A DNA stretch of 64,000 bases from an uncultured Candidatus Saccharibacteria bacterium (lineage in GTDB: Bacteria; Patescibacteriota; CALEFQ01): positions 353,184-417,183 of the forward strand of contig OZ246404.1 in the NCBI GenBank assembly GCA_965230955.1, read 5' to 3'. The notes under the pieces were generated by a model. The model made no database searches and was not told the origin of the DNA. It worked only from the letters and a program-made list of their open reading frames with translations. Position numbers and translations under genes: made by a program. Positions 2-48,042 of the stretch are shown here, in pieces. Position 1 is the stretch's first letter. The number at the start of each line of letters is the position of its first letter.

Positions 2-1174
2 TTGGCCGTAAATTTTGGGACATTAGTCGGGCATATTACCTTGAAGCGCGGTCTGATCAAAGACGAGGTCCGTGATTTCACCGAAGATGAATTCAAAATC
101 GCCGAAAAAATGCTCGATCGGTCTCTGTATGACGGCGCTTTCGGGTTTTCGACCGGATTGACCTATTCCCACGGCCGGTTCGCTAAAGTGGAAGAGATTA
201 TTCGGCTGGTAAAAGTAGTTTCTAAGTACAATGGTATTTACGCCACGGCCTTGCGCGATGAAGGAGCGGGGTTGGTCGCCTCCGTCGATGAGGCGATTGC
301 GGTGGGCAAAGAGACAAACGTGCCGGTGGAAATTTCCCAATTCAAAGCCAAGGGCGCAGAAAATCACCGGCTTTTCGCCGAGGCGTTGGCTCATATCGAG
401 AAAGCCGCCAATGAAAAAATAAATATAAATTTTGATCTTTATCCTTACGCCATTACCGGGACGGTGCTGTATACTTATTTGCCTGATTGGGTGACCCAGG
501 GCGGACGGAAAGCGATGATGGAGAAATTGAAAAATCCTCAGTTGCGTTCCAAAATTATCGCCGAGATGAAAAATAGCGGACATAATTTTAGGGGTTTGAG
601 AATCGCCCAGAGTTCGAATTTGGCTTTTGTCGGGAAAAAGATTACCCAGTTGAGCCAGGAAGCTCACCTCAGTCCGGAAGAGGCGGTAATTAATACTTTG
701 ATTGCCAGCGAGGGGAAAGCTATTTGTTTTGATCCGGCGCTGAGTGAAAATAATATTAAAGCCGGTTTGGTCAATCCGCTGTCGATTGTCGCCACCGACG
801 GTTCGGGCTATGGCTTGGAGTACGGCGCGACCAAGAATTTGGTCCATCCGCGCTGTTTCGGGACATATCCGAGATTTTTGGGGCGCTATGTCCGCGAGGA
901 AAAACTATTGAACTGGGAAGAAGCAATTTACAAAATTACCGGTATGCCGGCGCGCAAGCTTGGCCTGTTGGATCGCGGATTTATCCAGGAAGATTTGCAA
1001 GCCGATATCGCGGTAATTGATCCGGCGCGGATTCATGATGACGCGACTTTCGAGAATCCCTATCATTTCCCGGAAGGAATTGAAGCGGTCATGGTCAACG
1101 GCGTCGAAGTTGTTCGCCAGGGAAAAAATACCGGAAAGCGCCCGGGTCGGGTGTTAAGGCGGGGGAAGAATTAA
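2..1174 (+). CDS. N-acyl-D-amino-acid deacylase (D-aminoacylase)-like amidohydrolase, 5'-partial
   Basis: ORF runs off the window start; C-terminal region of metal-dependent amidohydrolase fold resembling D-aminoacylases (family recognition by eye, not searched). Confidence 0.55.
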   Translation: MAVNFGTLVGHITLKRGLIKDEVRDFTEDEFKIAEKMLDRSLYDGAFGFSTGLTYSHGRFAKVEEIIRLVKVVSKYNGIYATALRDEGAGLVASVDEAIAVGKETNVPVEISQFKAKGAENHRLFAEALAHIEKAANEKININFDLYPYAITGTVLYTYLPDWVTQGGRKAMMEKLKNPQLRSKIIAEMKNSGHNFRGLRIAQSSNLAFVGKKITQLSQEAHLSPEEAVINTLIASEGKAICFDPALSENNIKAGLVNPLSIVATDGSGYGLEYGATKNLVHPRCFGTYPRFLGRYVREEKLLNWEEAIYKITGMPARKLGLLDRGFIQEDLQADIAVIDPARIHDDATFENPYHFPEGIEAVMVNGVEVVRQGKNTGKRPGRVLRRGKN

Positions 1175-1206: not shown

Positions 1207-1914
1207 ATGTTGATACCGAAATTGGCGCAGGACAATCAGGTGGTAATGGCGATGGTTTCGGAACGTTTCGAGGGGGATATGCGGGATATGCATTCGGAAA
1301 TTGCTCAAAGATGGTTGCGTTCGCTGGGGATAGCCGTTGATCGGATTGTCAGGGCGGAGCAGATTCACGGCAATCAAATTGTCGTAGTGAATGAAGGCGA
1401 TGCCGGAAAAACTATTTCCGGAGCGGACGGTCTTATCACCAATGTGCCGGGCGTATATTTGGGAATTGTTGCGGCTGATTGCGAGCAGGTATTAATTTTT
1501 GATCCGGTGCGGAGAGCGGTTGGAGCCGTGCATGTCGGTTGGCGCGGAAATGTTTCCGGAGTCATCGGCCGGGCGGTCGCGGCCTTAAATAAAAATTTTC
1601 AGTGCCGAAATCGTGACCTGTCGGTTTACATCGGCCCGTCGCTGGGTCCATGTCATGCTAGATTTTCCGATCCGCAGAGAGAATTGCCGCTCGGATTTCA
1701 GAAATATATTACTAAACGTGAGCATCAAGCCGGTTGGCTGGATTTTTGGCAAGCGACGATTGATCAATTGGTTGACCTGGGGGTTTCGGCTGATCGAATT
1801 GAAAAGACAGGCATATGTACGGCTTGCGAAAAAAACAGATTCTTTTCATGTCGGGCGGAAAAAAAGATTGTGGGGGAGCAGATTGCCTTGATTGGGCTTA
1901 ATGATAAGTCGTGA
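1207..1914 (+). CDS. pgeF: YfiH/PgeF family (DUF152) peptidoglycan-editing factor / laccase-domain protein
   Basis: Motifs GADGLIT...GIVAADCEQVLIFDP...AVHVGWRG typical of the YfiH/PgeF family. Confidence 0.75.
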   Translation: MLIPKLAQDNQVVMAMVSERFEGDMRDMHSEIAQRWLRSLGIAVDRIVRAEQIHGNQIVVVNEGDAGKTISGADGLITNVPGVYLGIVAADCEQVLIFDPVRRAVGAVHVGWRGNVSGVIGRAVAALNKNFQCRNRDLSVYIGPSLGPCHARFSDPQRELPLGFQKYITKREHQAGWLDFWQATIDQLVDLGVSADRIEKTGICTACEKNRFFSCRAEKKIVGEQIALIGLNDKS

Positions 1915-1924
1915 CAGGAAAAAC

Positions 1925-2626
1925 ATGTCTCAATTGCAGGAACAACCTGAAATGTATTGGGCGATACCGCGACGATCGACGGTCGAGGTACTGCGCAAAA
2001 CTGTAGCCGATTTCTCGTCCTTGACGCCGGCGGCGCTGGATCGTTTGCGTCAATCTCAAATATTGGCGAGTGATCCGCCGGTCAAAGTCTTGAAAGAAGC
2101 CGGTGATTGGCGGTTGATTCAAATGGCTGATCTGACGCGCGGCTGGGTCGGGGCGGATTTTTTGGAAAAAAAGTTGCCGTCCGAAAATTATTGGGCGAAG
2201 GTTAGACGCTTTGGCGCCGAGCCGGTGCCGGTCAAATTATCGGCGGCCGAATTTCTGGATACCCTGAAGAATTGGCCTGCGCCGAAGTATGTCTGGGGCG
2301 GGCGGCAAGCCGACGGTCTTGATTGCTCGGGTTTGGTTCAGGCGGTATTTTTGCAAACTACCGGTTACTGGTTGCCCAAACATTCCAAAGACCAAGCGGC
2401 GCTGGGACAGCCGGTTTCCAGCTCCTGGGCGCTGGGCGACTTGGTCCTCATGAAAAACAAGGAAACCGCAGTGTCGCATATCGGTATCGTGACCGATCCG
2501 GCTCGGAAAATAATCTGGCATCATTCGCGCCAGAATGGACGGCCTCGTTTTGAATCGATGCCGGATTTGTCCCGGAGCTATAAATTTTTATCCGTTAACC
2601 GTTTGCTCGCTTTCGCTTTGGTCTGA
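1925..2626 (+). CDS. NlpC/P60 (C40) cell-wall peptidase
   Basis: Catalytic Cys motif GLDCSGLVQAVF and downstream His (VSHIGIV); start chosen at ATG 1925 (ORF track begins 1892, overlapping pgeF). Confidence 0.65.
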   Translation: MSQLQEQPEMYWAIPRRSTVEVLRKTVADFSSLTPAALDRLRQSQILASDPPVKVLKEAGDWRLIQMADLTRGWVGADFLEKKLPSENYWAKVRRFGAEPVPVKLSAAEFLDTLKNWPAPKYVWGGRQADGLDCSGLVQAVFLQTTGYWLPKHSKDQAALGQPVSSSWALGDLVLMKNKETAVSHIGIVTDPARKIIWHHSRQNGRPRFESMPDLSRSYKFLSVNRLLAFALV

Positions 2627-2656
2627 TGGCCGGAGTCGCAAGCTTATTTTAAAACT

Positions 2657-4102
2657 ATGATTGACCACCCTTATCTCAATCAACTGCGCCAAAAGAAAGT
2701 GCATTTAGTCGGTTTGTCATCGGCGGAAATCAGCGCGGTGGCGGAATTTTTGTGCGCCCAGGGAGTCAAAAATTTGGTGGCTCATGATATCAACGACGGG
2801 GTGGAATTCAAACAATCTTTTCGCCGCTCGCACCAGGGATTGACCCGGGCTCAGCAAGTGGCGTCTCTAAAAAAGATCGAATCTCTGCCGATTGAGAAAC
2901 GCTTCGGTAAAAAATATCTGCAAGGGATTGAGGAGGCGCAGGTTATTTTTCCCACGCAAGGCTGGTTTTTGTATCCGGCCAGCAAGGACAAACTCAGTGA
3001 GTTACAGAGCCAGGGGACGGAATTTGGCAGTATGACCAAGCTGTATTTGCAATTGTCGCCCGCCTCGGTCATCGGTGTCACCGGCACGAACGGCAAGGGG
3101 ACGACGACTCATCTGATTGCCGCTATGCTCAAAGCGGGCGGACGCAAGGTTTATTTGGCCGGCAATGATCCGGAAAGCATTCAGGCTCTCGATCAGCTGG
3201 AAAAAATGCAAGAGAGCGATTATTTGGTCTTGGAAATAAGCAATCGCCAGCTAATGATAGATTTGGGCCGGAGTCCGGCGATTGCGGTGATTACCAATGT
3301 CACACCCAATCATTTAAACGAGCACCGCAATCTTTTTGACGAATACGCCCGGACCAAACAATCTCTGCTTAAATACCAAGAGCCGGGCGATCATGCTATT
3401 TTGAATTTTGACAATGAAACTACCGCTCAATTTGCTCTGAAAGCCAAAGCAAAAGTTTGCGGTTTCTCCACTTTCAAAAACTTGCGGGACGGTGTGTGCC
3501 TGATCAAGGACAAAATCATTTCCAGCTGTGAAGGCAAACCGGAAACGGTCGCGTCGGTCAGTGAAGTAAAATTGCCGGGGCGGTATAATTTGGAAAATGT
3601 TTTAGCGGCCGTGGCTGTGGCAAAAATTTGCCAGATCGACAACGAGGCGATTCGCCGAGCGCTTACTCATTTCAAAAGCATGCCCCACCGCTTGGAGTTT
3701 ATCGCCGAAGTGAAGGGCGTGCGTTACTTCAATGATTTATTCAGCACGACGCCGGCTTCGACGCAATTGGCGATTGAATCCTTTGACAAGCCGGTGGTGT
3801 TGATTGCCGGCGGAGAAGCGAAAGGCGTCGATTATTTTTCGCTGGCCGAGGTGATCAAGGGACATGTCAAAAAACTCTGGCTTTTCCCCGGAACCGTGGC
3901 CGATGACCTGAAAAAACATTTACAGAAAATACATTTCGACAATTTCGTGGAAACGGATGATTTCGATAAATGTTTGAAAGCCATTGCCGGGGAAGCGCTG
4001 GCGGGCGAGGTTGTCTTGCTTTCTCCGGGCGGTGCTTTTTTCAGTTCGAAATTCATTGAAAAAAAGTCAAAGGGATTTGATACGGTCGTCAAAAGCTGGT
4101 AA
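2657..4102 (+). CDS. murD: UDP-N-acetylmuramoylalanine--D-glutamate ligase
   Basis: Mur ligase P-loop GVTGTNGKGTTT, MurD-type N-terminal Rossmann domain, NDxxSTTPAST motif. Confidence 0.85.
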   Translation: MIDHPYLNQLRQKKVHLVGLSSAEISAVAEFLCAQGVKNLVAHDINDGVEFKQSFRRSHQGLTRAQQVASLKKIESLPIEKRFGKKYLQGIEEAQVIFPTQGWFLYPASKDKLSELQSQGTEFGSMTKLYLQLSPASVIGVTGTNGKGTTTHLIAAMLKAGGRKVYLAGNDPESIQALDQLEKMQESDYLVLEISNRQLMIDLGRSPAIAVITNVTPNHLNEHRNLFDEYARTKQSLLKYQEPGDHAILNFDNETTAQFALKAKAKVCGFSTFKNLRDGVCLIKDKIISSCEGKPETVASVSEVKLPGRYNLENVLAAVAVAKICQIDNEAIRRALTHFKSMPHRLEFIAEVKGVRYFNDLFSTTPASTQLAIESFDKPVVLIAGGEAKGVDYFSLAEVIKGHVKKLWLFPGTVADDLKKHLQKIHFDNFVETDDFDKCLKAIAGEALAGEVVLLSPGGAFFSSKFIEKKSKGFDTVVKSW

Positions 4103-4163
4103 ACCAAAAACCCCTGGATCATAAAGCATTCGGACTTTAGGAGCAGGGGTTTCCCGGTTGAAA

Positions 4164-4313
4164 TTATTTTTCTTCCTCGATCAGTTCCGCTTTCAACGGA
4201 TTAAGGCCGGTGACTTCGTATTCGGCTCCGCAATTGGAGCAATCGATCACGTCGCCGACTTTGGCCGAACCTTGCTCGATGGGAATTTCATTTTTGCAAT
4301 CTTGGCATTTCAT
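4164..4313 (-). CDS. LysW/ArgW-family zinc-ribbon amino-group carrier protein (49 aa)
   Basis: Hand-translated minus-strand ORF MKCQDCKNEIPIEQGSAKVGDVIDCSNCGAEYEVTGLNPLKAELIEEEK. CxxC...CxxCGAExEVxGLxPL plus acidic tail aligns closely with Thermus LysW (CPECGAEL...ELGELVVCEDCGAELEVVGLDPL...EDWGE). Not in ORF track because it is under 60 aa. Confidence 0.55.
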   Translation of the reverse strand: MKCQDCKNEIPIEQGSAKVGDVIDCSNCGAEYEVTGLNPLKAELIEEEK

Positions 4314-4316
4314 AAA

Positions 4317-4376
4317 TAGTCTTTGGTCTTTTGTCTTTAGTCTTTAGCCAAAGACCATAGACTAAAGACTAAGGAT
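4317..4376. repeat. AGTCTTT-heptad palindrome between divergent lysW-like and PLP-enzyme genes
   Basis: agtctttggtcttttgtctttagtctttagcc aaagaccatagactaaagactaagg. Confidence 0.8.
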
Positions 4377-4407
4377 CATTATACTATCAGGGTTAAAAAG
4401 ATCAAGC

Positions 4408-5439
4408 ATGCATTGCGTTAATTTCGAGAACCAATTAGACGTTAACCAAAAAGGGATCTGGAGATTCCGCCGTTTTTTTAATACCGAGATAGCGTCCGAG
4501 TATCGGCTGACAATGCGGGAGGGGCATACGCCCCTGGAACCGCTGGTAGTCGGATCGCAGAAAATTTGGCTGAAACGGGAAGATAAAAATCCGCACGGTT
4601 CGCACAAAGATCGGTCTCTGGCTTATCAAGTTTCTCTGGCGCAGCAACAGGGGGCGACCGAATTGGTTATCTCTTCTTCCGGCAATGCGGCGATTGCCGC
4701 CGCGGCGTTTTGCCGGCTGGCAAAAATCAAGCTTTGGGCTTTTCTTGCGCCGACAATTCCTCGGCAAAAGTTCTTAGCCGTCAAAGAGTCGGGCGCCACC
4801 ATTATTGTCAGCCATCGCGCTATGCGCTTGGCCAATTATCTGTCCAAGAAAAAGAAATTAATCAATCTGCGGCCTTCCACCAATGATGACTCGATTGTCG
4901 GATTCAAAACCTTGGGGTTTGAGATTTTCGAACAAACGGAAAAGGTATTGCCGATTTTTACTTATGTTACCAGCGGCAGTTCGTTGATCGGCCTGGCTCA
5001 ATCCGGCCAGGAATTGCTGGCCGCCGGTTGTCTCAGCCGTTTACCCGCCTTAAACGCGGTTCAGTCCGGCGGCCTGGTATCGGCCGGGGGAGTCGTGGGC
5101 GATGAGACTGGCGCCAGTTTGGCCGGGCAAGGCGGTACCAGGAAGACCCGCCGCGCCGAGCAAATTATCGAAGCGGTGGGATTGAGCGGCGGACGGACTT
5201 GGCATATTTCCGAAGAGCAAATAAAAGAGGCGGCGGCGCTTTTGAGCCGGCAAAATATTCAGACTTCTTTTGAAGGTTGCGCTTCGCTGGCCGCGGTTAT
5301 CGCCAGCGGCGAGAGTGAGGCGGTATGTGTTTTGACTGGACGTTTTTATGAGAGCGAGCCGGTTTTGCCCGTCGATATGATCGGCGTGGCCGAGGCGGTT
5401 AATTTGGATCAAATTGATCAGTTGATTTTTCATGCCTAA
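4408..5439 (+). CDS. PLP-dependent fold-type-II enzyme (threonine synthase / cysteine synthase-like)
   Basis: PALP-family lysine motif GSHKDRS, glycine-rich SSSGNAAIAAA loop. Confidence 0.65.
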   Translation: MHCVNFENQLDVNQKGIWRFRRFFNTEIASEYRLTMREGHTPLEPLVVGSQKIWLKREDKNPHGSHKDRSLAYQVSLAQQQGATELVISSSGNAAIAAAAFCRLAKIKLWAFLAPTIPRQKFLAVKESGATIIVSHRAMRLANYLSKKKKLINLRPSTNDDSIVGFKTLGFEIFEQTEKVLPIFTYVTSGSSLIGLAQSGQELLAAGCLSRLPALNAVQSGGLVSAGGVVGDETGASLAGQGGTRKTRRAEQIIEAVGLSGGRTWHISEEQIKEAAALLSRQNIQTSFEGCASLAAVIASGESEAVCVLTGRFYESEPVLPVDMIGVAEAVNLDQIDQLIFHA

Positions 5440-6811
5440 AACGATAAACAATTTTGAGGATTGTCAGCGCTTGTTGGCGCCGGTTGAGGCCGATGTTTTT
5501 GCGCTGGGCAATTCGGTCTACCATGGCTTGGGATTGCTGGAAATATTGCCTTCCGCCAAAGTTATCTGTCTGGATGATGACAATTTATTGGTCTGGCTGG
5601 CCAAAGAAAAAGCGACGATTTTTTCGCTGGAGGAAAAGGGGGGGCGGCCAAAAAATGTTTTTCGCAGTAGTGCTAATTTATTGGCGGCGGAGCCGGTGCA
5701 AGCATTTCTTAAAAAGAATTCAACTCATCCTTGGCTCTATGTGCCGAAGTCTAGCCGACGGCTGGAAATCCAGGCTCAGAAAATCGGGGCGGAAATTATT
5801 GGTGCCAGCAGTGCGCTTAACCATCTCTTTGAAGATAAAATTTCTTTCACTAAAAAAATCGTGGAATGGGGCCTGTCTCGCGCGCCGCGCCAGGAAATCG
5901 AGGTTTTTCGCCCGGCTTTGTTTGACGCCGCTCGACGCTGGGGCTGGCCGCTGGTAATTCAGTTCAATCGCGGCATTGCCGGCGAAGGGACGAAGTTTTT
6001 AGAAAACCAGGCCGAGCTCGCCAGTTTCGCGGCTCAAAATGAAGGGCGGCCGGCGGTAGTGGCCAAGTTTGTTAAAGGTAAAACGATTACTCTCAATGCC
6101 TGTGTTACTTACCGGGGAACGGTAATCGGCCGGCCCTTTTGGCAGATTACCGGCGCCGCGACGCTCAATCGCAATCGCGGCGGAACCGGCGGTAATGACT
6201 ATGCCGCGGATTTGAAATTAAGCGATTCCCAATCGGCAGAGATCGCCCAAATTACTCAGCTGATCGGAGCCAAAATGTTTGCGGCGGGATACCGGGGCTT
6301 ATTCGGATTGGATTTGATCGTCGAAGAAAAAATTACCGTCATCGAAATCAATGCCCGGCCGACGGCTTCGATCCCCACCTATACGCAGTTGGAGCGCGAG
6401 AGCGGAGAAATTCCGCTTTTGGGTTTGCATTTGCTGGAATTTCTGCGGATCCCTTATGATTTTGACCTCGACCGTCTGAATCAAGTCAAAGCTAAAACTG
6501 ATTATCGGGGGAGCAAAGTAATTATTCGCAATACGACGGATCGGCCGATCGAAATCACCCGGGATCTGGCGCCGGGCGTATATGAGTTGGCGGAAGATCG
6601 TTTGGTTTTCAAGCGATTCGGTCGGCGGCTCAAGGATATCCGAGCCGAGGGAGAATTCCTGGTTTGGACGGCCAAGGCGCGACGCCAAATCAATCCGAAT
6701 ATAGAGATGGCTATCGTTTATTTCCGTCAGTCGGTGCTTGATAGTCAGTTCATCTTGCGCCCGGAAATCCGCGCCATTGCCGCTACCATTAAAGAACAAT
6801 TGCTTAAATAA
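5432..6811 (+). CDS. ATP-grasp ligase with extra N-terminal domain (459 aa)
   Basis: ATP-grasp core motifs (PLVIQ...G..GEG; GLFGLDLIVEE..ITVIEINARP). Confidence 0.6.
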   Translation: MPKTINNFEDCQRLLAPVEADVFALGNSVYHGLGLLEILPSAKVICLDDDNLLVWLAKEKATIFSLEEKGGRPKNVFRSSANLLAAEPVQAFLKKNSTHPWLYVPKSSRRLEIQAQKIGAEIIGASSALNHLFEDKISFTKKIVEWGLSRAPRQEIEVFRPALFDAARRWGWPLVIQFNRGIAGEGTKFLENQAELASFAAQNEGRPAVVAKFVKGKTITLNACVTYRGTVIGRPFWQITGAATLNRNRGGTGGNDYAADLKLSDSQSAEIAQITQLIGAKMFAAGYRGLFGLDLIVEEKITVIEINARPTASIPTYTQLERESGEIPLLGLHLLEFLRIPYDFDLDRLNQVKAKTDYRGSKVIIRNTTDRPIEITRDLAPGVYELAEDRLVFKRFGRRLKDIRAEGEFLVWTAKARRQINPNIEMAIVYFRQSVLDSQFILRPEIRAIAATIKEQLLK

Positions 6812-7939
6812 ATGTTGCCTAAACCGCACAAACCTGATTATCTCTTGTCCATCGTGGTTTTTATTTTAGTTGTTTTCGGATTGATTATGGTATCTTCGGC
6901 CAGCGTCGTGCAGTCTTATGAAAATACCGGCGACACTTATCATTATTTCCAGCACCAATTGATTTATGGCGTCATCATCGGTTTGATTGCCATGTTTATT
7001 TTCACGCGGATTCCGTATGAAAAATATAAAAAATTGGGCGCCGCCATGTTGGTTTCGGTATTTATTTTGTTGATATTGGTTTTGATTCTCGGGCGCGAAC
7101 TGGGTGGTTCGCGCAGTTGGATTTTTATCGGTGATTTTTCTTTTCAGCCGACGGAGTTGATCAAATTGCTCTTTGTTATGTATTTGGCTGTCTGGTTTGA
7201 GAAAAGGCAGCGCAAAGTACAGAATTTCCGTGAAGGCTTTTTGCCGTTTGTGATTTTGCTGGCCGCAATCGCGATGTTTATCGCGCTCCAGCCGGATCTG
7301 GGAACAATGGCGGTTATTTTATTGACGGCGGTGGTGGTGTTCTATGAAGCGGGCGGTAAAATCAGCCATATCTTGGTTTTAATGGCGAGCAGTTTTGCCG
7401 GATTGTTCGTGATGCTAAAAATGTTTCCCCACGCCGCTTTGCGCTTTACGGCATTTCTTCATCCCGAGCTTGATCCTCAGGGCGTCGGCTATCAGATAAA
7501 TCAGGCCGTTTTGGCGCTTGGTTCCGGGGGGATTTTCGGGCTGGGATTGGGCAATAGCCGGCAAAAATTCAATTATTTGCCAGAAGCCTCGGGCGATTCC
7601 ATCTTTGCCATTATCGGCGAGGAATTGGGTTTCGTTTTTGCTTTGATAATAATCGCTTTGTTTGTCGTTATTGCCTTGCGCGGATTGCGCATCGCTCGCC
7701 AAACGGAGGATATGTTCGGGAAATTGGTGGCGGTGGGGATCACCGCTTGGATCGTGTTTCAGGCTTTTTTCAACATCGCCGGCATCATGAACTTGATACC
7801 CTTTAGCGGTATTCCTTTGCCGTTGATAAGTTATGGCGGATCAGCTATGTTGGTTACATTGGCGGCGATGGGAATTTTGCTAAATATCTCGCGTTACACC
7901 AAAGAGCCGTTGCGGGCTTCACGCTCCAATATCGTTTAA
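6812..7939 (+). CDS. ftsW: SEDS-family peptidoglycan glycosyltransferase FtsW/RodA
   Basis: Polytopic membrane protein with SEDS signature and position between murD and murG. Confidence 0.8.
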   Translation: MLPKPHKPDYLLSIVVFILVVFGLIMVSSASVVQSYENTGDTYHYFQHQLIYGVIIGLIAMFIFTRIPYEKYKKLGAAMLVSVFILLILVLILGRELGGSRSWIFIGDFSFQPTELIKLLFVMYLAVWFEKRQRKVQNFREGFLPFVILLAAIAMFIALQPDLGTMAVILLTAVVVFYEAGGKISHILVLMASSFAGLFVMLKMFPHAALRFTAFLHPELDPQGVGYQINQAVLALGSGGIFGLGLGNSRQKFNYLPEASGDSIFAIIGEELGFVFALIIIALFVVIALRGLRIARQTEDMFGKLVAVGITAWIVFQAFFNIAGIMNLIPFSGIPLPLISYGGSAMLVTLAAMGILLNISRYTKEPLRASRSNIV

Positions 7940-17831: not shown

Positions 17832-19244
17832 ATGATTTCCAAAAAAGTTCAGCCCGCCTTGACTCCCAAAGATGATTCCGGTCACGCCAGCGCTTATAGC
17901 ACCAAGTATGCCGATCAGCCGATTCCCAAATACGAACTGCCGGCGAAAGGCATGCCGGCCAATATGGCTTACCAGCTGATTCACGATGAACTAAAGCTCG
18001 ACGGCGATCCGACGCAGAATCTTTCCAGTTTTTGCACCACTTGGATGGAATCGGAGGCAAAAAAGCTCATCCAGGAAAACGAAAATAAAAATTTTATCGA
18101 CCATGACCAGTACCCCCAGACGGAAGTGATTCACGAACGAATGGTCAATATGCTGGCACGGCTGTTTCATTCGCCGGAGAGTGCGCAGACCATCGGCACG
18201 GCGACGATTGGCTCGTCCGAAGCGATCATGCTGGGACTGCTGGCGCATAAATGGAATTGGAAAAAGAAAAGGGAAAAAGCCGGTTTGCCCGCGGACAAGC
18301 CGAATATTGTTTTTGGTGCCGATGTCCATGTTTGCTGGGACAAGTTTGCCCGGTATTTTGACGTGGAGATGCGCGTGATCCCGATGGAGCCGAATCGCTA
18401 TATCATCAGCGTGGAAGAAGTCGCGAAACTGATTGATGAAAATACTATCTGTGTCGGGGCGATTCTGGGAACCACTTTTACCGGCCAGGCGGATCCGATC
18501 GAAGAAATAAACGATTATCTTTTGAAAGTGAAGAAAGAAAAAGGCTGGGATATACCGATTCATGTCGACGGCGCCAGTGGCGGGATGATCGCGCCTTTTG
18601 CTTATCCGGATCTCAAATGGGATTTTCGCCTGGAACAAGTCCGCTCGATCAATGTCTCCGGCCATAAGTACGGACTAGTCTACCCGGGTCTGGGCTGGCT
18701 CATTTTCCGGGAATCGGCCGATTTGCCGGAGGAACTTATTTTCAAAGTAAATTATTTGGGCGGCGAGATGCCGACTTTTACCCTAAATTTTTCCCGCGGA
18801 GCCTCGATGATTTTGGCGCAGTACTATGTGTTTTTGCGCCTGGGATTCGAGGGGTACAAAAAAATCATGGCCAACACGATTGACAATGCCAAGTACGTAT
18901 CGGACGAGTTGGTCAAAACGGGACGGTTTGTGATGCTTAATCCCACGCAGATGCTTCCCATTGTCGCGGTCAAACTGAAAGATACCAAAAATTTTTCGGT
19001 TTTCGACTTGTCCTGCAAACTGCGAGAACGCGGCTGGATCATCTCGGCTTACACCCTGCCGCCGAATGCCCAAGCAACTGCTATTTTACGGATGGTGGTG
19101 CGGGAAAATTTCACGCGCGACATGTCTGATATTTTGGTGGGCGATATAAAAAAGGCGGTAGAAGTGCTTGATCAGCAAAAGCCGCGCGGAGTCAATGATC
19201 CGAAACCGACGCCTTTGCATCATAGGAAGCATCGGATTTGTTAA
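17832..19244 (+). CDS. gadB: Glutamate decarboxylase (PLP-dependent)
   Basis: [21 protein letters not shown]-lysine motif and overall GAD layout. Confidence 0.85.
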
Positions 19245-19247
19245 TAA

Positions 19248-19263
19248 GTCAAAAGTCAAAAAA
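19248..19263 (+). repeat. GTCAAAA heptad pair after gadB stop
   Basis: gtcaaaagtcaaaaaa. Confidence 0.6.
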
Positions 19264-19282
19264 TTTCCATAAGGATTATCTT

Positions 19283-20899
19283 ATGAAAAAAACTATTGCT
19301 GTCATTGTTGGTATCTTGCTTTTCCCGTTGGGGCTAGTTTCGATCCCGTCGGTTCAAGCAGCGAATACTCCGGCAAAGATTTTTGATTTAGCAAACTTGA
19401 AGACAGCCAAAGAATTTTCACCTTATGGCGCGAATTACGGCAAGGGTGCGAGTGGCGCGATTGGTGATGTCAATGGCGACGGCGTCGACGAAATCGTGAC
19501 TATCTCCGGGGCATCAACCCGCGGGCACCTGCGGGTTTTTGACTTGAACGGCAATCCGCTATCCTGGAATGTTTTCCCGTTTGAAAAAGTTTATACCGGC
19601 GGCGGAAAAGTGGCGGTGGGAGATACCGATGCCGACGGAACCAAAGAAATCATCGTTGTTCCTGCCGGCGCTCGCTTTCCGGAAGTATTTGTTTTTAAAT
19701 ACGGTCAAAACGCGCCGATAAAAAAATACTCGGTTTTCCAGTCTACTTTCCGTGGCGGCCTGTCTGTCGCCAGCGGTGATATTGATTATGACGGCAAAGA
19801 TGAAGTGATTGTGGCTACCGCCAGCCAAGGCGGAAATGTGGCGGTTTATGGCGGTGACGGCAAATTTTGGGGATTATCCGTCTTTCCTTTTGGTTCGGGA
19901 TATAAAGGCGGTCTTTCGGTTGCCTACGGAGCTTTTCGGGAAAGTCAGCCCGGTTTGGCGGTCGGCACTCTCTCTGGCGCGAACGGCCGGGTCAAAGTAA
20001 TTTCGGCCGAGAAAAATTTCAAAGTTTGGGGTGATTTTTTCCCTTTCGGTAAAACTTTCAAAAGCGGGACAAATGTGGCCGCGGCCGACGTCAATAAAGA
20101 CGGAATTGATGAAGTCGTGACGGCGGTGGCAGCGGCGGGAGCGCCGCAAGTGGTGGCTTATAGCGCCACGGGCAAAATTCAAAATGCCGTAAATTTCTTT
20201 CCTTTTGATAAAAGTGAAAAAGGCGGAGTCAATTTGGCCGCCAGTAGCAAAAAATTGGCAGTCTGGCCGGCGAAAATAATCCCGGCGACGGATTATGATT
20301 TTTGCCGCACCCATCGTTGTGTAGCGCTGACTTTTGACGACGGCGGTTCGCGGGGCGGTTCGCTCGAAAATATTTTGGCGGCGCTGGACAAGCATAATGT
20401 TAAGGCGACATTTTTTCTGATTGGTCGCTGGATGGATGCCAATCGCGGCACGGTGGCTGATATTTCCAGCCGCGGCCATCGACTGGGCAATCATACTTGG
20501 AATCATTCCATTTGTACCCGTATTCCGGCCGAGCAAATTCGGAGCGAATTGCAAAAAGCCGATTCCTTGGTCTCGATGATTACCGGCAAACCGACTAAGC
20601 CCAATTTCCGTTATCCGGGCGGCGGCCATAATGCCGGTACTGATGCGGTGGTGATGGGCGAGGGCTATCATTACTGGCAGTGGACCGCCGATACCCGCGA
20701 TGCGATGGGGAATCACGATCCGGCTTCGATCCGCAATATCGCTTTAAGTGGACTCCGTCCGGGGTCTGTGATATTATTTCATACGGGAAATGCGGCCACC
20801 GGAGCGGCTATGGATGGCATCATCAGCGCCATCAAAAACCAGGGTTATGAGATTGTGACGCTTGATCAGCTGGAATGGCAGAGGGGGAATCAGTGGTAA
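19283..20899 (+). CDS. Secreted FG-GAP-repeat protein fused to polysaccharide deacetylase (CE4/NodB) domain
   Basis: Signal peptide, repeated GDxNGDGxDEIV FG-GAP/VCBS-like motifs, C-terminal NodB motif VALTFDDGG...HTWNH. Confidence 0.7.
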   Translation: MKKTIAVIVGILLFPLGLVSIPSVQAANTPAKIFDLANLKTAKEFSPYGANYGKGASGAIGDVNGDGVDEIVTISGASTRGHLRVFDLNGNPLSWNVFPFEKVYTGGGKVAVGDTDADGTKEIIVVPAGARFPEVFVFKYGQNAPIKKYSVFQSTFRGGLSVASGDIDYDGKDEVIVATASQGGNVAVYGGDGKFWGLSVFPFGSGYKGGLSVAYGAFRESQPGLAVGTLSGANGRVKVISAEKNFKVWGDFFPFGKTFKSGTNVAAADVNKDGIDEVVTAVAAAGAPQVVAYSATGKIQNAVNFFPFDKSEKGGVNLAASSKKLAVWPAKIIPATDYDFCRTHRCVALTFDDGGSRGGSLENILAALDKHNVKATFFLIGRWMDANRGTVADISSRGHRLGNHTWNHSICTRIPAEQIRSELQKADSLVSMITGKPTKPNFRYPGGGHNAGTDAVVMGEGYHYWQWTADTRDAMGNHDPASIRNIALSGLRPGSVILFHTGNAATGAAMDGIISAIKNQGYEIVTLDQLEWQRGNQW

Positions 20900-20981: not shown

Positions 20982-22406
20982 ATGAAAAAAGGAACTTTTT
21001 TATGGGTTGTGGGGATGGCTATTGCCGGGGTTGGTTTATTGGCCGGTAGCGCTCAGGCGGCCAATACCATGGCGCCGGAAGTAAAAGTTTTTAATGACAA
21101 CATGTCCAGTGTCGAAAAATCCTTTTTAGCTTGGCCGGTCAGCAATCAAAACGGCTGCAGTGTGGCCGTCGGAGATATAGACGGCAACGGTTACGGTGAA
21201 ATTATTGTCGGCGCCGGCAAAGGATCCGGGCCGCAGATCAGAATTTTTTCTAAAAACGGCGTCAATCAAGGTTTGGACTTTTTCGCCTTTGCGAATGATT
21301 TTCGCGGGGGAGTATCGGTGGCGACGGGAGATGTTGATGGTGACGGCAAAGAAGAAATAATTGTCGGTCAGCGCTCAGCCGGTCAGGCGCGGGTGAAAAT
21401 TTATCGCGCTAATAAACAACATTCGATAGTGGCCGAGTGGCTGGCTTATTCCGGCAATTTCCAGGGCGGTGTCACGGTCACGGCGGGTGATTTTAACGGT
21501 GACGGCAAGGACGAGATCGCCACGGCTCCGGGAACGAGCGGCGGAGCCCAAATTAAGTTTTTTGACGGCAAAGGGAAGCCAATGGGCAAGTCATTTTTCG
21601 CTTTTGATCCAGGAGAAAAAGGCGGTGCCACTCTGGCGGCCGCTGACGTTGACGGCGACGGATCCGATGAGTTGGCCGTGGGTCATGGTCCTTTCGGAGA
21701 TCCAAGAGTCAAGCTTTATCGAATTGTCGGAAATAGCGAATTTGTCTTGGCTGATTGGCGCGCTTATGACGCCGGTTTTCGCGGTGGAGTAAAAGTGGCG
21801 GCGGGCGATTTTGACAACAACGGCAAAGAAGAAATTTTGACAGCGGCCGGCTTTGGCGGCGGACCGCAAGTGCGGGGCTGGACAGCTTCCGGGAAACTGT
21901 ATAAAATCAACCGAATGGCCTATGCGGCCGATTTCCGCGGCAGTTTAAATCTGGCGTCCGGCGACATTGATCGCGACGGAAAATTGGAAATCGTTACTGT
22001 TCCCGATCGACGCCTGGGTGAAGGCCGACTGGATTATTTCCGTTATATCGATGTCAGTTTGGGTGAACAGCGCCTGCGGGCATTTGAGAACGGTGAATTG
22101 GTCCGAACATATTTGGTTTCTACCGGCACGGCTAAACATCCGACCCCGACCGGAACTTTCCATATCCAGGGACACACTCTATCTACCAGAATGGCTTGGG
22201 TATACGGTCCCGATAATCCGGATAACTACGATTTGCCCAATGTTCCTCATGTCATGCCCATTAGCGGTCCGATTACGATTCACGGCGCTTATTGGCACCA
22301 TAATTTCGGTCACGTGATGAGCCACGGGTGTATCAATGAACCTTTGGATCAAGCTGCCTGGTTATACTCCTGGGCGCGCAATGGAGATACGGTAATAGTA
22401 CATTAA
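20982..22406 (+). CDS. Secreted FG-GAP-repeat protein fused to L,D-transpeptidase (YkuD) domain
   Basis: Signal peptide, FG-GAP repeats (GDIDGNGYGEII etc.), C-terminal YkuD catalytic motif HGxxxxxxSHGCIN. Confidence 0.7.
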   Translation: MKKGTFLWVVGMAIAGVGLLAGSAQAANTMAPEVKVFNDNMSSVEKSFLAWPVSNQNGCSVAVGDIDGNGYGEIIVGAGKGSGPQIRIFSKNGVNQGLDFFAFANDFRGGVSVATGDVDGDGKEEIIVGQRSAGQARVKIYRANKQHSIVAEWLAYSGNFQGGVTVTAGDFNGDGKDEIATAPGTSGGAQIKFFDGKGKPMGKSFFAFDPGEKGGATLAAADVDGDGSDELAVGHGPFGDPRVKLYRIVGNSEFVLADWRAYDAGFRGGVKVAAGDFDNNGKEEILTAAGFGGGPQVRGWTASGKLYKINRMAYAADFRGSLNLASGDIDRDGKLEIVTVPDRRLGEGRLDYFRYIDVSLGEQRLRAFENGELVRTYLVSTGTAKHPTPTGTFHIQGHTLSTRMAWVYGPDNPDNYDLPNVPHVMPISGPITIHGAYWHHNFGHVMSHGCINEPLDQAAWLYSWARNGDTVIVH

Positions 22407-27661: not shown

Positions 27662-29638
27662 TTGTTATTTATCAAGCCCACTATGCCTAATGCCGAAATA
27701 AATTCTTTTGGACAAACCAATTACCGCAATCGCCGGGTGGAATTTGGTATCAAACTTGATGATCGGCGCCGTCATATGTATGTGATCGGGAAAACCGGCA
27801 TGGGTAAATCCCATTTGCTGCGGCACCTGGCCTACAATGATATTCAAGCAGGGCGGGGAATCGCCTTTGTCGATCCGCACGGTGATTCCGCTGACTGGCT
27901 GTTGGAATACATTCCGGCCAGCCGGATAAATGACGTCGTGTATATCAATCCAACCGATATCGATTTTCCCATTGCCTTTAATGTGTTGGAAAAAGTTGAT
28001 CGACGCTATCACAATTTGGTGGCGGACGGTTTAGTGGGCGTTTTCAAAAAAATCTGGGCCGAATCCTGGGGACCGCGTTTGGAATATTTGATGCGCAACG
28101 CCATTTTGTCATTGTTGGACTATCAGGACAGCACTCTGCTCGGCGTGACCAGGATGCTGGTCGACAAAGCTTATCGTAAAAAAGTTATTGCTCGGGTGCA
28201 GGATCCGGTGGTCAAAGCTTTTTGGGTCGAGGAATTCGCCAAATACAACGACAAATTTTTAGTGGAAGCGATTTCTCCCATCCAAAATAAAATCGGGCAG
28301 TTTTTGGCTAATGCCGTGATTCGGAATATTGTCGGCCAGCCTCAAAGCACGATCAATATCCGCGAAATCATGGATCAGGGCAAAATACTAATCCTGAATC
28401 TTTCCAAAGGCAAAATCGGCGAGGCCAGCAGTGCTTTGCTTGGCGCCATGATTATTACCAAGCTCCAGTTGGCGGCGATGAGCCGCGCCGATATTCCCGA
28501 GGAGCAACGGCGCGATTTTTTCCTTTATGTCGATGAATTCCAAACTTTCGCGACGGAGAGTTTTGCTGATATCTTGTCCGAAGCTCGCAAGTATCGCCTC
28601 GGTTTGGTGATGGCGCATCAGTATATTGAGCAGATGCCGGAAGAAGTGGCGGCGGCGGTTTTTGGCAATGTCGGCACGTTAATCTCTTTCCGGGTGGGCG
28701 CGGCGGACGCCGAAGTCCTCGAGACCGAATTTGCTCCGGTATTTATGCAAAAAGACTTGGTTAATCTGCCCAAGTTTGGTTTCTATATTAAATTAATGAT
28801 TGATGGCGTGGCCAGTGACGGTTTTAGCGCTAATACGGTCAATATGAAATTTACTCCGACGGGGAATAAGGATAAAGTGATCCGGGTTTCGCGGGAGCGT
28901 TATGCCAATCCTCGTTCTGTCGTTGAGGAAAAAATTGCTCGCTGGAGCGGGGTTTTTGAAGGCAAGGTCGGGGTAGACAAAGATAGTTATGAAAAGGAAG
29001 ACGAGGCCCGAAATAATAAGTCCCGTTTCAAACCGGCAGTCAGCCGCCCGGTTTTGGGGCACCAGGAAAATCGTCCGGCTTCTTTTGCTCCAAAGAGTTA
29101 TCCGCCCAAGAATAATTTTTCGCGTCCGCCGATCAATCGGCCGGCGCCAACAGCGGTTAATCGAGCGTCCAACTATCAACCGGCTCCTCGACCGATCATG
29201 TCGAGTGCGCCTGCGTCTCATTCTGCTCCCGCCCCGACGCCTTATCCGAGCCAGCGTCCGGCTGTCTCTCATCCGATAGTTTCTCGTCCGGCATCTGTAT
29301 CTCCGAAACCGCGATTGTCTCCTCCTGTTTCAGCGCCTCGGCCGGTTCCGGCACCGCGGGCGAATACGAGTCCGCGTCCGGTTGTTTCATCTCGTCCAGT
29401 GTCTGCACCTTCGAAACAGCGGTCTACTCCGCCGGCGCGTCATTACCCGACACCGCCTCCTCCGATCCCGCCGCGGACCAGAATCGTTCCAAAAACCGCG
29501 AAGCCGGTAGCGACAGGGATTTCTCTGAAGGAAGCGGTCAAGCAAGGACCGCAAAGCGTGCATCAGCCCAAAATAAATAAGCCGCGCGGTGATCGCCGGC
29601 CTTTGCCCCCGGGGCAGAAGGCGGTGCTTGGTAAATAG
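27662..29638 (+). CDS. VirD4/TraG/TrwB-like (T4SS coupling-protein family) P-loop ATPase with about 230-aa Pro-rich C-terminal tail
   Basis: Walker A GKTGMGKS, FVDPHGD (like the DPKGE motif), Walker B LYVDEFQTF; C-terminus low-complexity PAP/SRP repeats. Confidence 0.55.
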   Translation: MLFIKPTMPNAEINSFGQTNYRNRRVEFGIKLDDRRRHMYVIGKTGMGKSHLLRHLAYNDIQAGRGIAFVDPHGDSADWLLEYIPASRINDVVYINPTDIDFPIAFNVLEKVDRRYHNLVADGLVGVFKKIWAESWGPRLEYLMRNAILSLLDYQDSTLLGVTRMLVDKAYRKKVIARVQDPVVKAFWVEEFAKYNDKFLVEAISPIQNKIGQFLANAVIRNIVGQPQSTINIREIMDQGKILILNLSKGKIGEASSALLGAMIITKLQLAAMSRADIPEEQRRDFFLYVDEFQTFATESFADILSEARKYRLGLVMAHQYIEQMPEEVAAAVFGNVGTLISFRVGAADAEVLETEFAPVFMQKDLVNLPKFGFYIKLMIDGVASDGFSANTVNMKFTPTGNKDKVIRVSRERYANPRSVVEEKIARWSGVFEGKVGVDKDSYEKEDEARNNKSRFKPAVSRPVLGHQENRPASFAPKSYPPKNNFSRPPINRPAPTAVNRASNYQPAPRPIMSSAPASHSAPAPTPYPSQRPAVSHPIVSRPASVSPKPRLSPPVSAPRPVPAPRANTSPRPVVSSRPVSAPSKQRSTPPARHYPTPPPPIPPRTRIVPKTAKPVATGISLKEAVKQGPQSVHQPKINKPRGDRRPLPPGQKAVLGK

Positions 29639-29669: not shown

Positions 29670-29778
29670 AATCAGATTTGTTGAAATTGGCTATTTGAAG
29701 CCGAAATATCGAGTTTCGAAAGAAGCCCTACTAACTTGTTATTATTTTAAGGTGGCGGAGGGGCACCGGATCATCAAT

Positions 29779-35785: not shown

Positions 35786-36367
35786 CTATTTTTGGGCTCG
35801 GACGAAAAATCTTTTCAAATCTGTCCCATTGGGCCAGCAGGTGACAAGAGTTATTTCGTTGACGTCATCATCCGGCGCTCGAAATACCTCGGTAGAATTT
35901 TTCCCGACGGTCCGGCGTTCGGTGACAGAGTAGCGATAAACGATGTCTTCATAATGAATGACGATTTCATCGCCAATTTCCAGTTTTTCCAGCAGGGTGA
36001 AAACGGTATTATAATCACTGGCTTGCCACCAATAATTTGAGCTATGTCCGATATATACCCCGTTTCCGATTTGGGTGGGGAGCGGAGTTTCGGGGTGATG
36101 AACCACTCCGTGAAGCAAGAGCGGCGCCAGATTGTCTTTTTGCGAATCATCAGATAGAATGAGCGGAGCGCGAAGCTTAATAGCCGGTATTTCGATATAG
36201 TTTTGATCAGCTATCAGCCGGTTTTCCGGCAGGGTATCAGTCAGATACCTCCATTGGATAGTCAGTATCGGCCAGTTGATAAAAAGGTAAGAACTCAAAA
36301 TTGCCAGGGCGAAAAGCGAGGCAAAAAAAGTGGAATTTTTGAGCAATGATTGACGCTGAATATCCAT
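35786..36367 (-). CDS. Sortase-family transpeptidase
   Basis: N-terminal TM anchor, TLVTCWP motif containing catalytic Cys. Confidence 0.7.
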   Translation of the reverse strand: MDIQRQSLLKNSTFFASLFALAILSSYLFINWPILTIQWRYLTDTLPENRLIADQNYIEIPAIKLRAPLILSDDSQKDNLAPLLLHGVVHHPETPLPTQIGNGVYIGHSSNYWWQASDYNTVFTLLEKLEIGDEIVIHYEDIVYRYSVTERRTVGKNSTEVFRAPDDDVNEITLVTCWPNGTDLKRFFVRAQK

Positions 36368-43988: not shown

Positions 43989-44697
43989 GAAGGTAGATCT
44001 CCACACCCATACCTGCTATTCCTACGACACTTTCACGCCGATGGAAAAGACCATTGCGGCGATACAGCAAAGTGGAATCGATTGTGTCGCGGTGACGGAC
44101 CACAACGAGGTGGCCGGTGCTTTTAAGATGCAAAAAATCGCGCCGTTCAAAGTGATTGTCGGTGAGGAAATACGGACAGCGGACGGGGAAATAATCGGTC
44201 TGTTTTTAAAAGAAAAAATCCCCGGCGGACTAGATCCGCGCGAAACCATTCGACGCATAAAAGAGCAGGGTGGTTTGGTCTATTTGCCTCATCCTTTTTG
44301 TTGGCTGCTCAATTCGAAATTGAAAAGTCCTCTGGTCTGGCAATATGTCCGGGAAGGATTGATTGATATTGTTGAAGTTTATAATGCTTCCGCCATTGCA
44401 TTGACTTCATTCAAAAAAGTCCATGAATTATTGACCGGTTCTCGGGCGGCCAAAGCGGTATCCACCGACGCGCATGTTCCCTATGAATTTGTCGGCGCAT
44501 GCGTGGAGATGGATCAGTTTGATGGTCCGCAGGATTTCCTCGCCAAAATAAAAAAAGCCCGGCTGATCATGAAGCCGGGATATCTCTATGCGACTTTTCA
44601 GATTATTTACAATTACTATATACGCACCAAGCTTTTCAAGGCACCGCACGGAGCCGAATTGGAAGCGGAGCTGGCCAAAAAACTCGCGGCCGAATAA
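43989..44697 (+). CDS. PHP-domain metal-dependent phosphoesterase
   Basis: MKVDLHTHTCYS ... VAVTDHN PHP motifs. Confidence 0.7.
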
Positions 44698-44704
44698 TGG
44701 TGCC

Positions 44705-44750
44705 AAAACAAAACAGCCTCGATCTTACATCTAGACTGTTTTTGTTTTCC
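44705..44750. terminator. Bidirectional terminator hairpin
   Basis: Stem aaaacaaaacag/ctgtttttgtttt with 19-nt loop between convergent genes. Confidence 0.6.
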
Positions 44751-44780
44751 GGGCATGTTGCTTTCGGCGTCCGGTAATTT

Positions 44781-45504: not shown

Positions 45505-45593
45505 CTGCTGAATTGTCAGTGGACTTGCGTCATTCATTTGTGCGCGAAACTTCGAAAGGAGAGGCACAAAACGGTGAAGTGACCGGATCGAAA

Positions 45594-48019: not shown

Positions 48020-48042
48020 TTTTTCCTTGTTTTTAATTTTTA

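Follow-up and report, generated by a model that had tools for sequence, protein, structure and literature searches.

A lysine-terminated LysW-like protein encoded with an ATP-grasp ligase, a threonine-synthase-like enzyme and an NlpC/P60-type amidase near peptidoglycan-precursor genes of Saccharibacteria

Proteins of the LysW/ArgW type, described in Thermus, Sulfolobus and Thermococcus and, as amino-group carrier proteins (AmCP), in Streptomyces, are small acidic zinc-ribbon proteins with a flexible C-terminal tail, encoded next to an ATP-grasp ligase. They act in lysine or arginine synthesis, where a kinase, a reductase and an aminotransferase modify the cargo and an M20 metallopeptidase releases it. 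Glutathionylspermidine synthetase/amidase pairs an ATP-grasp ligase with a papain-fold amidase, so that the same amide is made and broken, sometimes by one polypeptide. In Xanthomonas and Micromonospora, the D-Glu residue of the peptidoglycan stem peptide is generated in an ATP-consuming, one-way manner by MurD2/MurL, with a variant MurD-type ligase encoded beside non-canonical genes (PMC8788868). Here we describe a gene module that has points in common with each of these systems and lies in a 64,000-nucleotide stretch of contig OZ246404.1 (hereafter the window) from an uncultured Candidatus Saccharibacteria bacterium.

The core of the module is made up of a carrier ending in lysine, an ATP-grasp ligase, an enzyme of the threonine synthase (ThrC) clade dependent on pyridoxal 5'-phosphate (PLP), and an NlpC/P60-type amidase. 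These four are coupled both genetically and physically, and they are usually joined to an atypical MurD-type ligase and to mraY. We characterize the module by its gene content, its conservation, its gene fusions, the invariance of the carrier tail, the fold relationships of its proteins and the differences in their active sites. The searchable full-text literature yielded no account of this gene set or of a LysW-like protein ending in Lys. Our tentative reading is that a cargo would be loaded onto the carrier lysine, modified there and released, in a cycle feeding the MurD step.

To follow the module outside the window, we scored 89 non-redundant related loci with iterated local profiles; neighbor counts refer to the fetched DNA. 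A scan of species-level genomes returned 80 loci, from Saccharibacteria, Dojkabacteria, Paceibacterota, Magasanikbacteria, Peribacteria, Chloroflexota/Anaerolineales and Dormibacteria, from metagenome-assembled genomes (MAGs) labeled Gammaproteobacteria, Pirellulales and Bryobacterales, and from one labeled Nanoarchaeota. Among the 89 loci, the PLP enzyme was found in 42, a Lys-ended carrier in 38 and the trio of carrier, PLP enzyme and ATP-grasp ligase in 37; a carrier homolog adjoins the PLP gene in 37 of the 42 loci having that gene. An NlpC/P60-type hydrolase is present in 34 of the 37 trio loci, and 27 of them have genes for a Mur ligase, MraY, FtsW, MurG or MurB within 10 kb. The initial annotation of the window, which had singled out the trio and placed it among peptidoglycan-precursor genes, was therefore right on both counts: the trio is a real, conserved unit, kept together across related loci, and it is tied to these genes. 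Conservation extends from 72% down to about 27% identity of the ATP-grasp ligase, within dcw (division and cell wall) clusters and elsewhere, with all three genes together in relatives at 45%, 44%, 33%, 31% and 29% identity.

Natural fusions join the PLP enzyme (family PALP) to the ATP-grasp (P0155, P0230), the ATP-grasp to NlpC/P60 (P0209, P0237, P0259, P0267, L069) and NlpC/P60 to the Mur ligase (L004, L049). A five-gene block of NlpC/P60, Mur ligase, carrier, PALP and ATP-grasp was also found outside any dcw cluster in L004, L011, L049 and L083. Given these fusions and occurrences outside dcw clusters, the murD and NlpC/P60 genes of the window (1892-4102) belong to the module. The trio had been described as inserted between murD and ftsW; its position was correctly given, but the unit was misread, as it also includes the murD-like ligase and, upstream of that, the NlpC/P60 gene.

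Two other arrangements were observed. In what is hereafter called the second arrangement, seen in Magasanikbacteria and others, the order is murB(-), ATP-grasp, a divergent NlpC/P60-like gene (family X255, see below), mraY, an atypical MurC/Mpl-like ligase that reaches neither cut-off, carrier(-) ending in DEGK, PALP and a further MurD-type ligase(-). In L041:1770-13588, from an uncultured-bacterium MAG, the order is murE, MurC/Mpl-like ligase, murF-like, mraY, carrier, PALP, ATP-grasp, ftsW and murG; the trio occupies the usual murD slot, where no murD was found, and the fetched DNA holds no NlpC/P60-type gene. As the link is kept through independent gene-order rearrangements, a tie to the early cytoplasmic steps of stem-peptide synthesis has been retained.

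The three open reading frames (ORFs) of the initial annotation are all present where it had placed them, the smallest, of 49 aa, with the sequence it had quoted. Its likening of this ORF to LysW holds for the Pfam family, as the protein passes PF21344 (Zn_ribbon_LysW) at 39.5 bits against a cut-off of 27, but not for the NCBIfam LysW models, whose thresholds are missed (TIGR01206, 33.1 bits vs 53.2; NF041070, 30.0 vs 75). Solved LysW chains are matched in phmmer searches (3WWL, E 9e-7; 5K2M, E 4e-5), with the CxxC...CxxCGAExEV motifs aligned, and the globular domains of the two proteins are homologous. The zinc-ribbon cysteines are C3, C6, C25 and C28, and the acidic tail ends in ...LIEEEK. 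Codon changes relative to four orthologs are mainly synonymous and in third positions (19 synonymous and 6 non-synonymous against L012), and the ORF is a real gene under purifying selection.

The last residue is Lys in 41 of 41 complete carriers, 38 from the profile search of related loci and three divergent ones. The tails of the 38 read IEEEK (17), EEEEK (5), VEEEK (4) or V/IDEGK (6), with EDEK, NEEK and ETEK in addition, so that the terminal lysine is invariant while the acidic positions are all variable. The divergent carriers (122-135 aa, minus strand; L035:7694-8092, L043:8008-8379 and L063:7940-8350) have a long acidic or low-complexity N-terminal extension and an insertion within the zinc ribbon; in their tails, EPSDMIK or EPSEMMK, the EEE run is gone and the Lys end is kept. 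Two loci, L022 and L039, were cut at a contig edge in the carrier search. A word-indexed homology search with the carrier as query gave five close relatives only, and hence neither family-wide statistics nor carrier fusions from that query.

The tail of Thermus LysW ends in ...EDWGE, which is consistent with the aligned 54-aa chain. The deviation that had already been pointed out, EEEK instead of EDWGE, does matter; the Lys end is invariant across the family. With a terminal Lys in place of Glu, the reactive group is probably an amine and not a gamma-carboxylate, which would invert the tether to a carboxyl one.

The initial annotation had referred the trio to the LysW/LysX amino-group-carrier systems. 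That it forms a genuine pathway of this kind, for lysine through alpha-aminoadipate (AAA), for LysW-type arginine or for a Streptomyces-type AmCP natural product, appears very improbable. The zinc-ribbon domain does match LysW and an ATP-grasp is adjacent, but the NCBIfam models fail, the tail ends in Lys, and the ligase is not LysX/RimK-like: it has no sequence match to LysX/ArgX among Protein Data Bank (PDB) entries and is structurally nearer to PurK and PylC, so that its proposed role as a loader of the LysX/ArgX kind was not upheld either. No gene of the LysZ/Y/J/K types (kinase, reductase, aminotransferase, M20 hydrolase) was found in the 64-kb window, in agreement with the remark that no other AAA-pathway genes were in view, nor among the Pfam-annotated genes of L001-L011 or the recurrent neighbor families. 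Models, tail, ligase type and the partners absent from the window and these loci effectively refute the canonical LysW/LysX pathway.

The ATP-grasp ligase falls in Pfam ATP-grasp_3 and consists of pre-ATP-grasp, ATP-grasp and C-terminal domains, with an intact E305-x-N307-x-R309 motif. Its AlphaFold2 (AF2) model has a mean confidence (pLDDT) of 92.9, and its nearest Foldseek neighbors are the three-domain PurK, PurT and biotin-carboxylase group. A canonical Ddl (D-Ala-D-Ala ligase), an identity that the initial annotation had named as fatal to its proposal, is ruled out by the family models, the PDB sequence search and the structural class. The family is large, with 4,140 cluster representatives in a profile search at E<=1e-3 and 1,114 at E<=1e-30. 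PylC shares the ATP-grasp_3 family and the overall architecture, at an identity of only about 11% for PylC and for the D-aspartate ligase Aslfm. Both of these enzymes acylate the epsilon-amine of a lysine. Their acceptors are free lysine and UDP-MurNAc-pentapeptide (UDP-MurNAc, uridine diphosphate N-acetylmuramic acid), respectively, whereas the candidate acceptor here, by analogy, would be the C-terminal lysine of a protein.

The structural search also detects RimK and tubulin-tyrosine ligase (TTL), as distant relatives. The ATP-grasp might extend or branch the acidic tail, as RimK does on S6 and TTL/TTLL on tubulin, with NlpC/P60 trimming it, the whole serving as a cell-wall regulatory switch. 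The tail resembles the substrates of protein-modifying ATP-grasp ligases, and the ligase/amidase pairing fits. Such tagging, however, gives no role to a PLP enzyme that is tightly coupled and sometimes fused, and leaves the linkage to a MurD-type ligase unexplained; we consider it quite improbable.

A distant ATP-grasp subfamily of about 500 aa and ~25% identity was set aside as a paralog and may belong to a separate system. It occurs in ~30 loci (L042-L062 and others), mostly of Saccharibacteria and other Patescibacteria, in which no carrier, PALP or NlpC/P60 partner was found. Its neighbors in 21 loci include an unrelated, RimK-like second ATP-grasp protein of ~430 aa (for example, L058:617-1975 beside the ATP-grasp at 3114-4547), together with YebC, RuvC and a penicillin-binding protein. 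The Nanoarchaeota MAG contig JAUYDD010000141.1 (L066, assigned to DPANN) carries at 4296-5708 a member of the ATP-grasp family that is 29% identical over residues 166-457; no partner gene was detected on the contig, and the gene may reflect a transfer, mis-binning or a paralog.

The PLP enzyme has the fold-type-II PALP domain (133 bits) and retains the S-S-G-N-A loop and the PLP lysine, K67, which aligns with ThrC K61 and is conserved in 100% of the family. Its closest sequence match in the PDB is the bacterial ThrC 6CGQ (E 6e-15), and its AF2 model (pLDDT 91.5, with one disordered Gly-rich loop at 223-235) is nearest to bacterial ThrC (TM score of 0.77 to 6NMX). The equivalog models for ThrC are nevertheless missed by a wide margin (best, 113 bits vs a cut-off of 421). 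Alignment to 1UIM, 6CGQ and 2ZSJ places a Pro at N154 and a Ser at R160 of Thermus ThrC, two residues that we take to be ligands of the O-phosphohomoserine phosphate. Across 157 family members the first position is Pro and the second Ser or Ala; an invariant, family-specific N-L-R-P-S motif spans the latter, and a new invariant arginine, Arg155, is present. The enzyme thus shares with ThrC the fold, the PLP lysine, the carboxylate loop and the conserved Lys121 equivalent, and differs from it in the replaced phosphate ligands, in Arg155 and in its operon partners, which are a carrier and a ligase instead of thrA/thrB. The model cut-offs and the replaced active-site residues rule out a true threonine synthase.

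These relationships leave room for a different product. In this alternative, which we judge unlikely, the carrier would template the synthesis of an unusual, non-glutamate amino acid by ThrC-like beta/gamma chemistry. The electrophile, an aminoacrylate or a vinylglycine that might derive from O-phospho-serine or O-phospho-homoserine, would be captured by the epsilon-amine of the carrier Lys or by a loaded residue, giving a diamino-dicarboxylic acid (lysinoalanine-like or diaminopimelate (DAP)-like) or another component of the stem peptide or cross-bridge. NlpC/P60 would then cut the product off, and the ATP-grasp would recharge the carrier, for example by re-adding Lys as TTL does with tyrosine. 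The ThrC clade is known for beta/gamma chemistry and not for racemization, fold and active-site Lys are kept, and SbnA, CysK and lanthionine-synthase-type enzymes are also among the structural neighbors. The invariant C-terminal Lys and the peptidoglycan context are accommodated as well, and the proposal stays close to the initial annotation, which had speculated on a stem-peptide or cross-bridge component. However, the substrate-phosphate ligands R160 and N154 are lost family-wide, the conserved ligase is of the MurD type (position 2) and not the MurE type (position 3), and an N-alkyl bond is not cleavable by an amidase, so that the ATP-grasp and NlpC/P60 proteins would need separate roles.

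The NlpC/P60 protein of the window matches Spr/MepS in the PDB, together with the gamma-D-glutamyl-L-diamino-acid endopeptidases 2EVR, 2HBW and 3H41. Enzymes of this family typically cleave gamma-D-glutamyl amides. Translation may start at 1952 instead of 1892, a 224-aa product being called on L092. Elsewhere the gene is replaced by X255, a divergent NlpC/P60-like family of ~255 aa encoded directly after the ATP-grasp. X255 proteins show the motifs GIDCSGFV and GDLIR...HVAI and cross-hit true NlpC/P60 proteins, with a Pfam NlpC/P60 score of 21.9 bits, just under the cut-off of 23; the two types were never found together in one trio locus.

The MurD-type ligases encoded beside EEEK-type carriers pass the murD equivalog TIGR01087 with 219-257 bits (cut-off 212). 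We aligned the ligase of the window residue by residue to the MurD proteins of E. coli and S. agalactiae. The equivalents of T321 and K348, the core ligands of the D-Glu alpha-carboxylate, are retained (alignment to 1E0D). In contrast, D182 is replaced by Asn (NVTPNH vs NVTEDH in E. coli) and K319 by Phe (NDLFSTTP vs NDSKATN), the latter position being Asn, Ser or Lys in other module ligases, and E. coli A414-S415-L416-D417 (A-S-L-D) becomes A-F-F-S (S415->F, L416->F, D417->S), or P-x-F-F in others. This altered pattern is common to every module-linked MurD-type ligase. We take S415-L416-D417 to be the gamma-carboxylate loop of MurD; its alteration would fit a tethered substrate. D182, K319, K348, A414 and L416 lie at the Glu site of MurD, K319, D182 and L416 govern Glu recognition or chirality, the K319T exchange enables the E. 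coli enzyme to use L-Glu, and in MurD2 the positions of A414 and L416 are occupied by Pro and Phe (PMC8788868).

In the second arrangement, odd MurD-type ligases follow right after PALP (L078:9755-11134 and L084:16098-17588, both on the minus strand). They carry the motifs YYND(S/T)AS and SPGFEA(A/V)G(L/V)D, their central domain has no recognizable NVTxDH-type motif, and they may be degenerate or re-purposed MurD proteins.

Accessory genes are found upstream of the NlpC/P60 gene. The amidohydrolase matches a D-aminoacylase (1M7J, E 1.7e-74) and an N-acyl-D-glutamate deacylase (3GIP, E 3.7e-68) in the PDB; a full-length ortholog with an Amidohydro_3 domain is encoded at L001:3029-4603. D-aminoacylase-like genes of this kind are present in the window and in the dcw-type loci L001-L003, L009, L012 and L013, that is, in this clade only. 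The PgeF-like protein reaches 129 bits with TIGR00726 (peptidoglycan editing factor PgeF), just below the cut-off of 141. The predicted functions of the amidohydrolase, PgeF-like and NlpC/P60 genes are all suggestive of a chemistry of D-amino acids and stem peptides. L001 (1865-2995) and L002 (1932-3083), which are among the dcw-type loci closest to the window, have a gene inserted between mraY and that of the D-aminoacylase; it encodes a conserved ~380-aa protein with only a weak match to protein G of the type II secretion system (T2SS; E 0.004).

The same genes could also belong to a muropeptide salvage or editing cluster that recycles host-derived stem peptides. NlpC/P60, the D-aminoacylase, PgeF and a MurD/Mpl-like ligase would do the recycling, the PLP enzyme and the ATP-grasp would process salvaged amino acids, and the zinc ribbon would be an adaptor or regulator and not a covalent carrier. 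This would agree with the resemblance of NlpC/P60 to gamma-D-Glu-diamino-acid endopeptidases and of the amidohydrolase to D-aminoacylase and N-acyl-D-Glu deacylase, with the PgeF-like gene, with the MurC/Mpl-like ligases of the second arrangement and with the host dependence and reduced genomes of these organisms. We nevertheless hold it to be improbable: the D-aminoacylase and PgeF genes are confined to one clade and stand outside the invariant core of carrier, PALP, ATP-grasp and NlpC/P60, an adaptor role leaves the invariant terminal Lys on a flexible acidic tail unexplained, and the NlpC/P60-ATP-grasp fusions suggest opposing reactions on one bond.

Returning to the carrier-lysine cycle, we infer where the cargo is attached, which amino acid it is, what kind of reaction it undergoes and in which order the steps follow. 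The ATP-grasp ligase would activate the carboxyl group of a free amino acid, most likely the gamma-carboxyl of L-glutamate, and join it to the epsilon-amine of the terminal Lys of the carrier. The free alpha-amino acid end of the tethered residue would be bound by the PLP enzyme as an aldimine and then converted, the likeliest conversion being epimerization at C-alpha to D-Glu. The MurD-type ligase would couple UDP-MurNAc-L-Ala to this D-Glu, on the carrier or after release, and the NlpC/P60 amidase would hydrolyze the isopeptide and regenerate the carrier. Overall, the second residue of the stem peptide would be supplied in one direction only, at the expense of ATP.

An inverted version of the LysW cycle is proposed because the invariant terminal Lys offers an epsilon-amine, and because such amines in lysine are acylated by PylC, an ATP-grasp enzyme with a related fold, and by Aslfm, one from a related pathway. 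As the PLP enzyme needs a free alpha-amine, the amino group of the cargo cannot serve as its tether, in contrast to LysW. The fusion of a papain-fold amidase to the ligase suggests that one and the same amide is first formed and then cleaved, comparable to glutathionylspermidine synthetase/amidase. Since NlpC/P60 enzymes typically cut gamma-D-glutamyl amides and the ligase is of the MurD type, glutamate would be the most economical cargo. A link to the D-Glu step is further suggested by the altered MurD-type ligase, the trio in the murD slot of L041, and the D-aminoacylase and PgeF-like genes in the operon of one clade. By analogy, MurD2/MurL provides a precedent for alternative ATP-consuming D-Glu routes beside a variant murD. 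The specific conversion of L-Glu to D-Glu on the carrier is a more doubtful proposition than the cycle itself. Equally speculative is the designation of the protein as a 'carboxyl-group carrier protein', a mirror image of LysW that would provide a third, previously unknown route to D-Glu for peptidoglycan; if so, this route would be widely distributed among Patescibacteria and would also occur in some Chloroflexota and Dormibacteria.

Several observations weigh against the carrier-lysine cycle or its D-Glu version. We know of no racemase or epimerase in the ThrC clade, and the PLP fold would accommodate a beta- or gamma-replacement or an elimination just as well. To our knowledge, NlpC/P60 enzymes cut gamma-D-Glu attached to an alpha-amine and not to an epsilon-amine, and three trio loci (L027, L038, L041) show no NlpC/P60-type gene. 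PurK and biotin carboxylase match the ATP-grasp at the same Z as PylC does, so the likeness does not single out PylC. The D-aminoacylase could just as well indicate that D-Glu is salvaged and not synthesized, and in many loci of Saccharibacteria no Mur ligase adjoins the four core genes. Finally, the initial annotation had expected its proposal to fail if relatives kept both enzymes and lacked the small ORF, and this is the case in a few of them: the PALP/ATP-grasp pair is kept in MAGs labeled Myxococcales (L010:9001-11408), Anaerolineales (L014:7597-10214) and Gammaproteobacteria (L044), where neither regular-expression nor profile searches of the fetched DNA found a carrier, and where this DNA holds no NlpC/P60 or Mur ligase gene. 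The neighbors in L010 include glycosyltransferases, chorismate synthase and a methyltransferase.

The features of the locus are listed in Table 1. The PALP stop and the ATP-grasp start overlap by 8 nt, the ATP-grasp stop (6811) abuts the ftsW start (6812), and the genes downstream follow in the order ftsW, murG, murC, murB. Promoter-like sequences were found in the 94-nt spacer on the minus strand (4405-4378, 10/12) and the plus strand (4358-4385, 9/12); these are consensus matches only, and the shuffled spacer gave a mean of 0.7 such sites. The genome had been called reduced, which is reasonable given a source contig of 1.136 Mb and related proteins labeled Patescibacteria by their sources.

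Table 1 Features of the module and its immediate surroundings in the window.
Feature	Coordinates	Strand	Remarks
Amidohydrolase, D-aminoacylase / N-acyl-D-glutamate-deacylase-like	2..1174	+	Accessory; gene truncated by window edge
PgeF/YfiH-like protein, Cu-oxidase_4 family	1207..1914	+	Accessory; PF02578 182 bits
NlpC/P60 cysteine amidase	1892..2626	+	PF00877 60 bits; DCSGLV ... SHIGIV motifs
MurD-type Mur ligase, module-specific subgroup	2657..4102	+	TIGR01087 257 bits vs cut-off 212
LysW-fold zinc-ribbon protein, putative carrier, 49 aa, sequence MKCQDCKNEIPIEQGSAKVGDVIDCSNCGAEYEVTGLNPLKAELIEEEK	4164..4313	-	PF21344 39.5 bits
Divergent spacer between carrier gene and PLP gene, 94 nt	4314..4407	.	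Sigma-70-like sites, both strands
Fold-type-II PLP enzyme (PALP), 343 aa, threonine-synthase clade	4408..5439	+	PALP 133 bits; GSHKDRS, K67
Three-domain ATP-grasp ligase, 459 aa, putative carrier loader	5432..6811	+	Pfam ATP-grasp_3
ftsW	6812..7939	+	Directly downstream of ATP-grasp

Other parts of the window were also annotated. A bona fide glutamate decarboxylase (17832-19244; TIGR01788, 649 bits vs a cut-off of 380) precedes two proteins with FG-GAP repeats, of which the first has a polysaccharide deacetylase domain (19238-20899) and the second a YkuD L,D-transpeptidase domain (20982-22406); these genes of glutamate metabolism and cell-wall remodeling lie 11 kb away from the module. A surface or attachment apparatus of an epibiont could be formed by three further products: an ATPase resembling TrwB/HerA, of the type IV coupling protein kind (27662-29638), a protein of 1,480 aa in which bacterial Ig-like and fibronectin domains occur (29695-34137), and a sortase (35786-36367, minus strand). 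Just upstream of ftsA, the region 44000-50000 has a low GC content (0.40-0.44 vs about 0.49 elsewhere) and minus-strand genes for two HD-domain proteins, a calcineurin-like phosphoesterase and a 203-aa protein; it may be an acquired island.

If the proposed cycle is correct, the module would add to carrier-protein biochemistry a new branch, in which a LysW relative ends in lysine and the chemistry of the tether is inverted, as well as a new function for the threonine-synthase fold and an unrecognized peptidoglycan-precursor step in the Candidate Phyla Radiation, including human-associated Saccharibacteria. Confirmation of the inverted tether and of the D-Glu role would merit calling it a new kind of system. 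Members of the ATP-grasp family currently bear no annotation other than 'threonine synthase', 'ATP-grasp protein' or 'hypothetical', so that metabolic reconstructions probably mis-assign these genes, for example by crediting the organism with threonine synthesis. A cell-wall step of this kind, if essential and lineage-specific, would be a narrow-spectrum target.

Compared with the known systems, the module likely shares with LysW, by analogy, the logic of loading, modification on a carrier and release by a hydrolase. It differs in the invariant Lys that ends the carrier tail in place of the Glu of EDWGE, in the fold-II PLP enzyme that stands where LysW systems have a kinase, a reductase and an aminotransferase, in a papain-fold NlpC/P60 instead of an M20 metallopeptidase, and in its peptidoglycan context. 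Glutathionylspermidine synthetase/amidase offers a parallel, again by analogy, to the ATP-grasp-NlpC/P60 fusions, but acts on glutathione and spermidine and has no carrier, PLP enzyme or link to the cell wall. The closest documented functional analog is MurD2/MurL (PMC8788868). There too a variant MurD-type ligase is encoded beside non-canonical genes, and the module ligases differ from E. coli MurD at K319, D182 and L416, partly the same positions. The module has no MurL but, in its stead, a carrier together with an ATP-grasp, a PLP enzyme and an amidase, for which we propose the same logic, an ATP-consuming and one-way generation of the D-Glu residue of the stem peptide.

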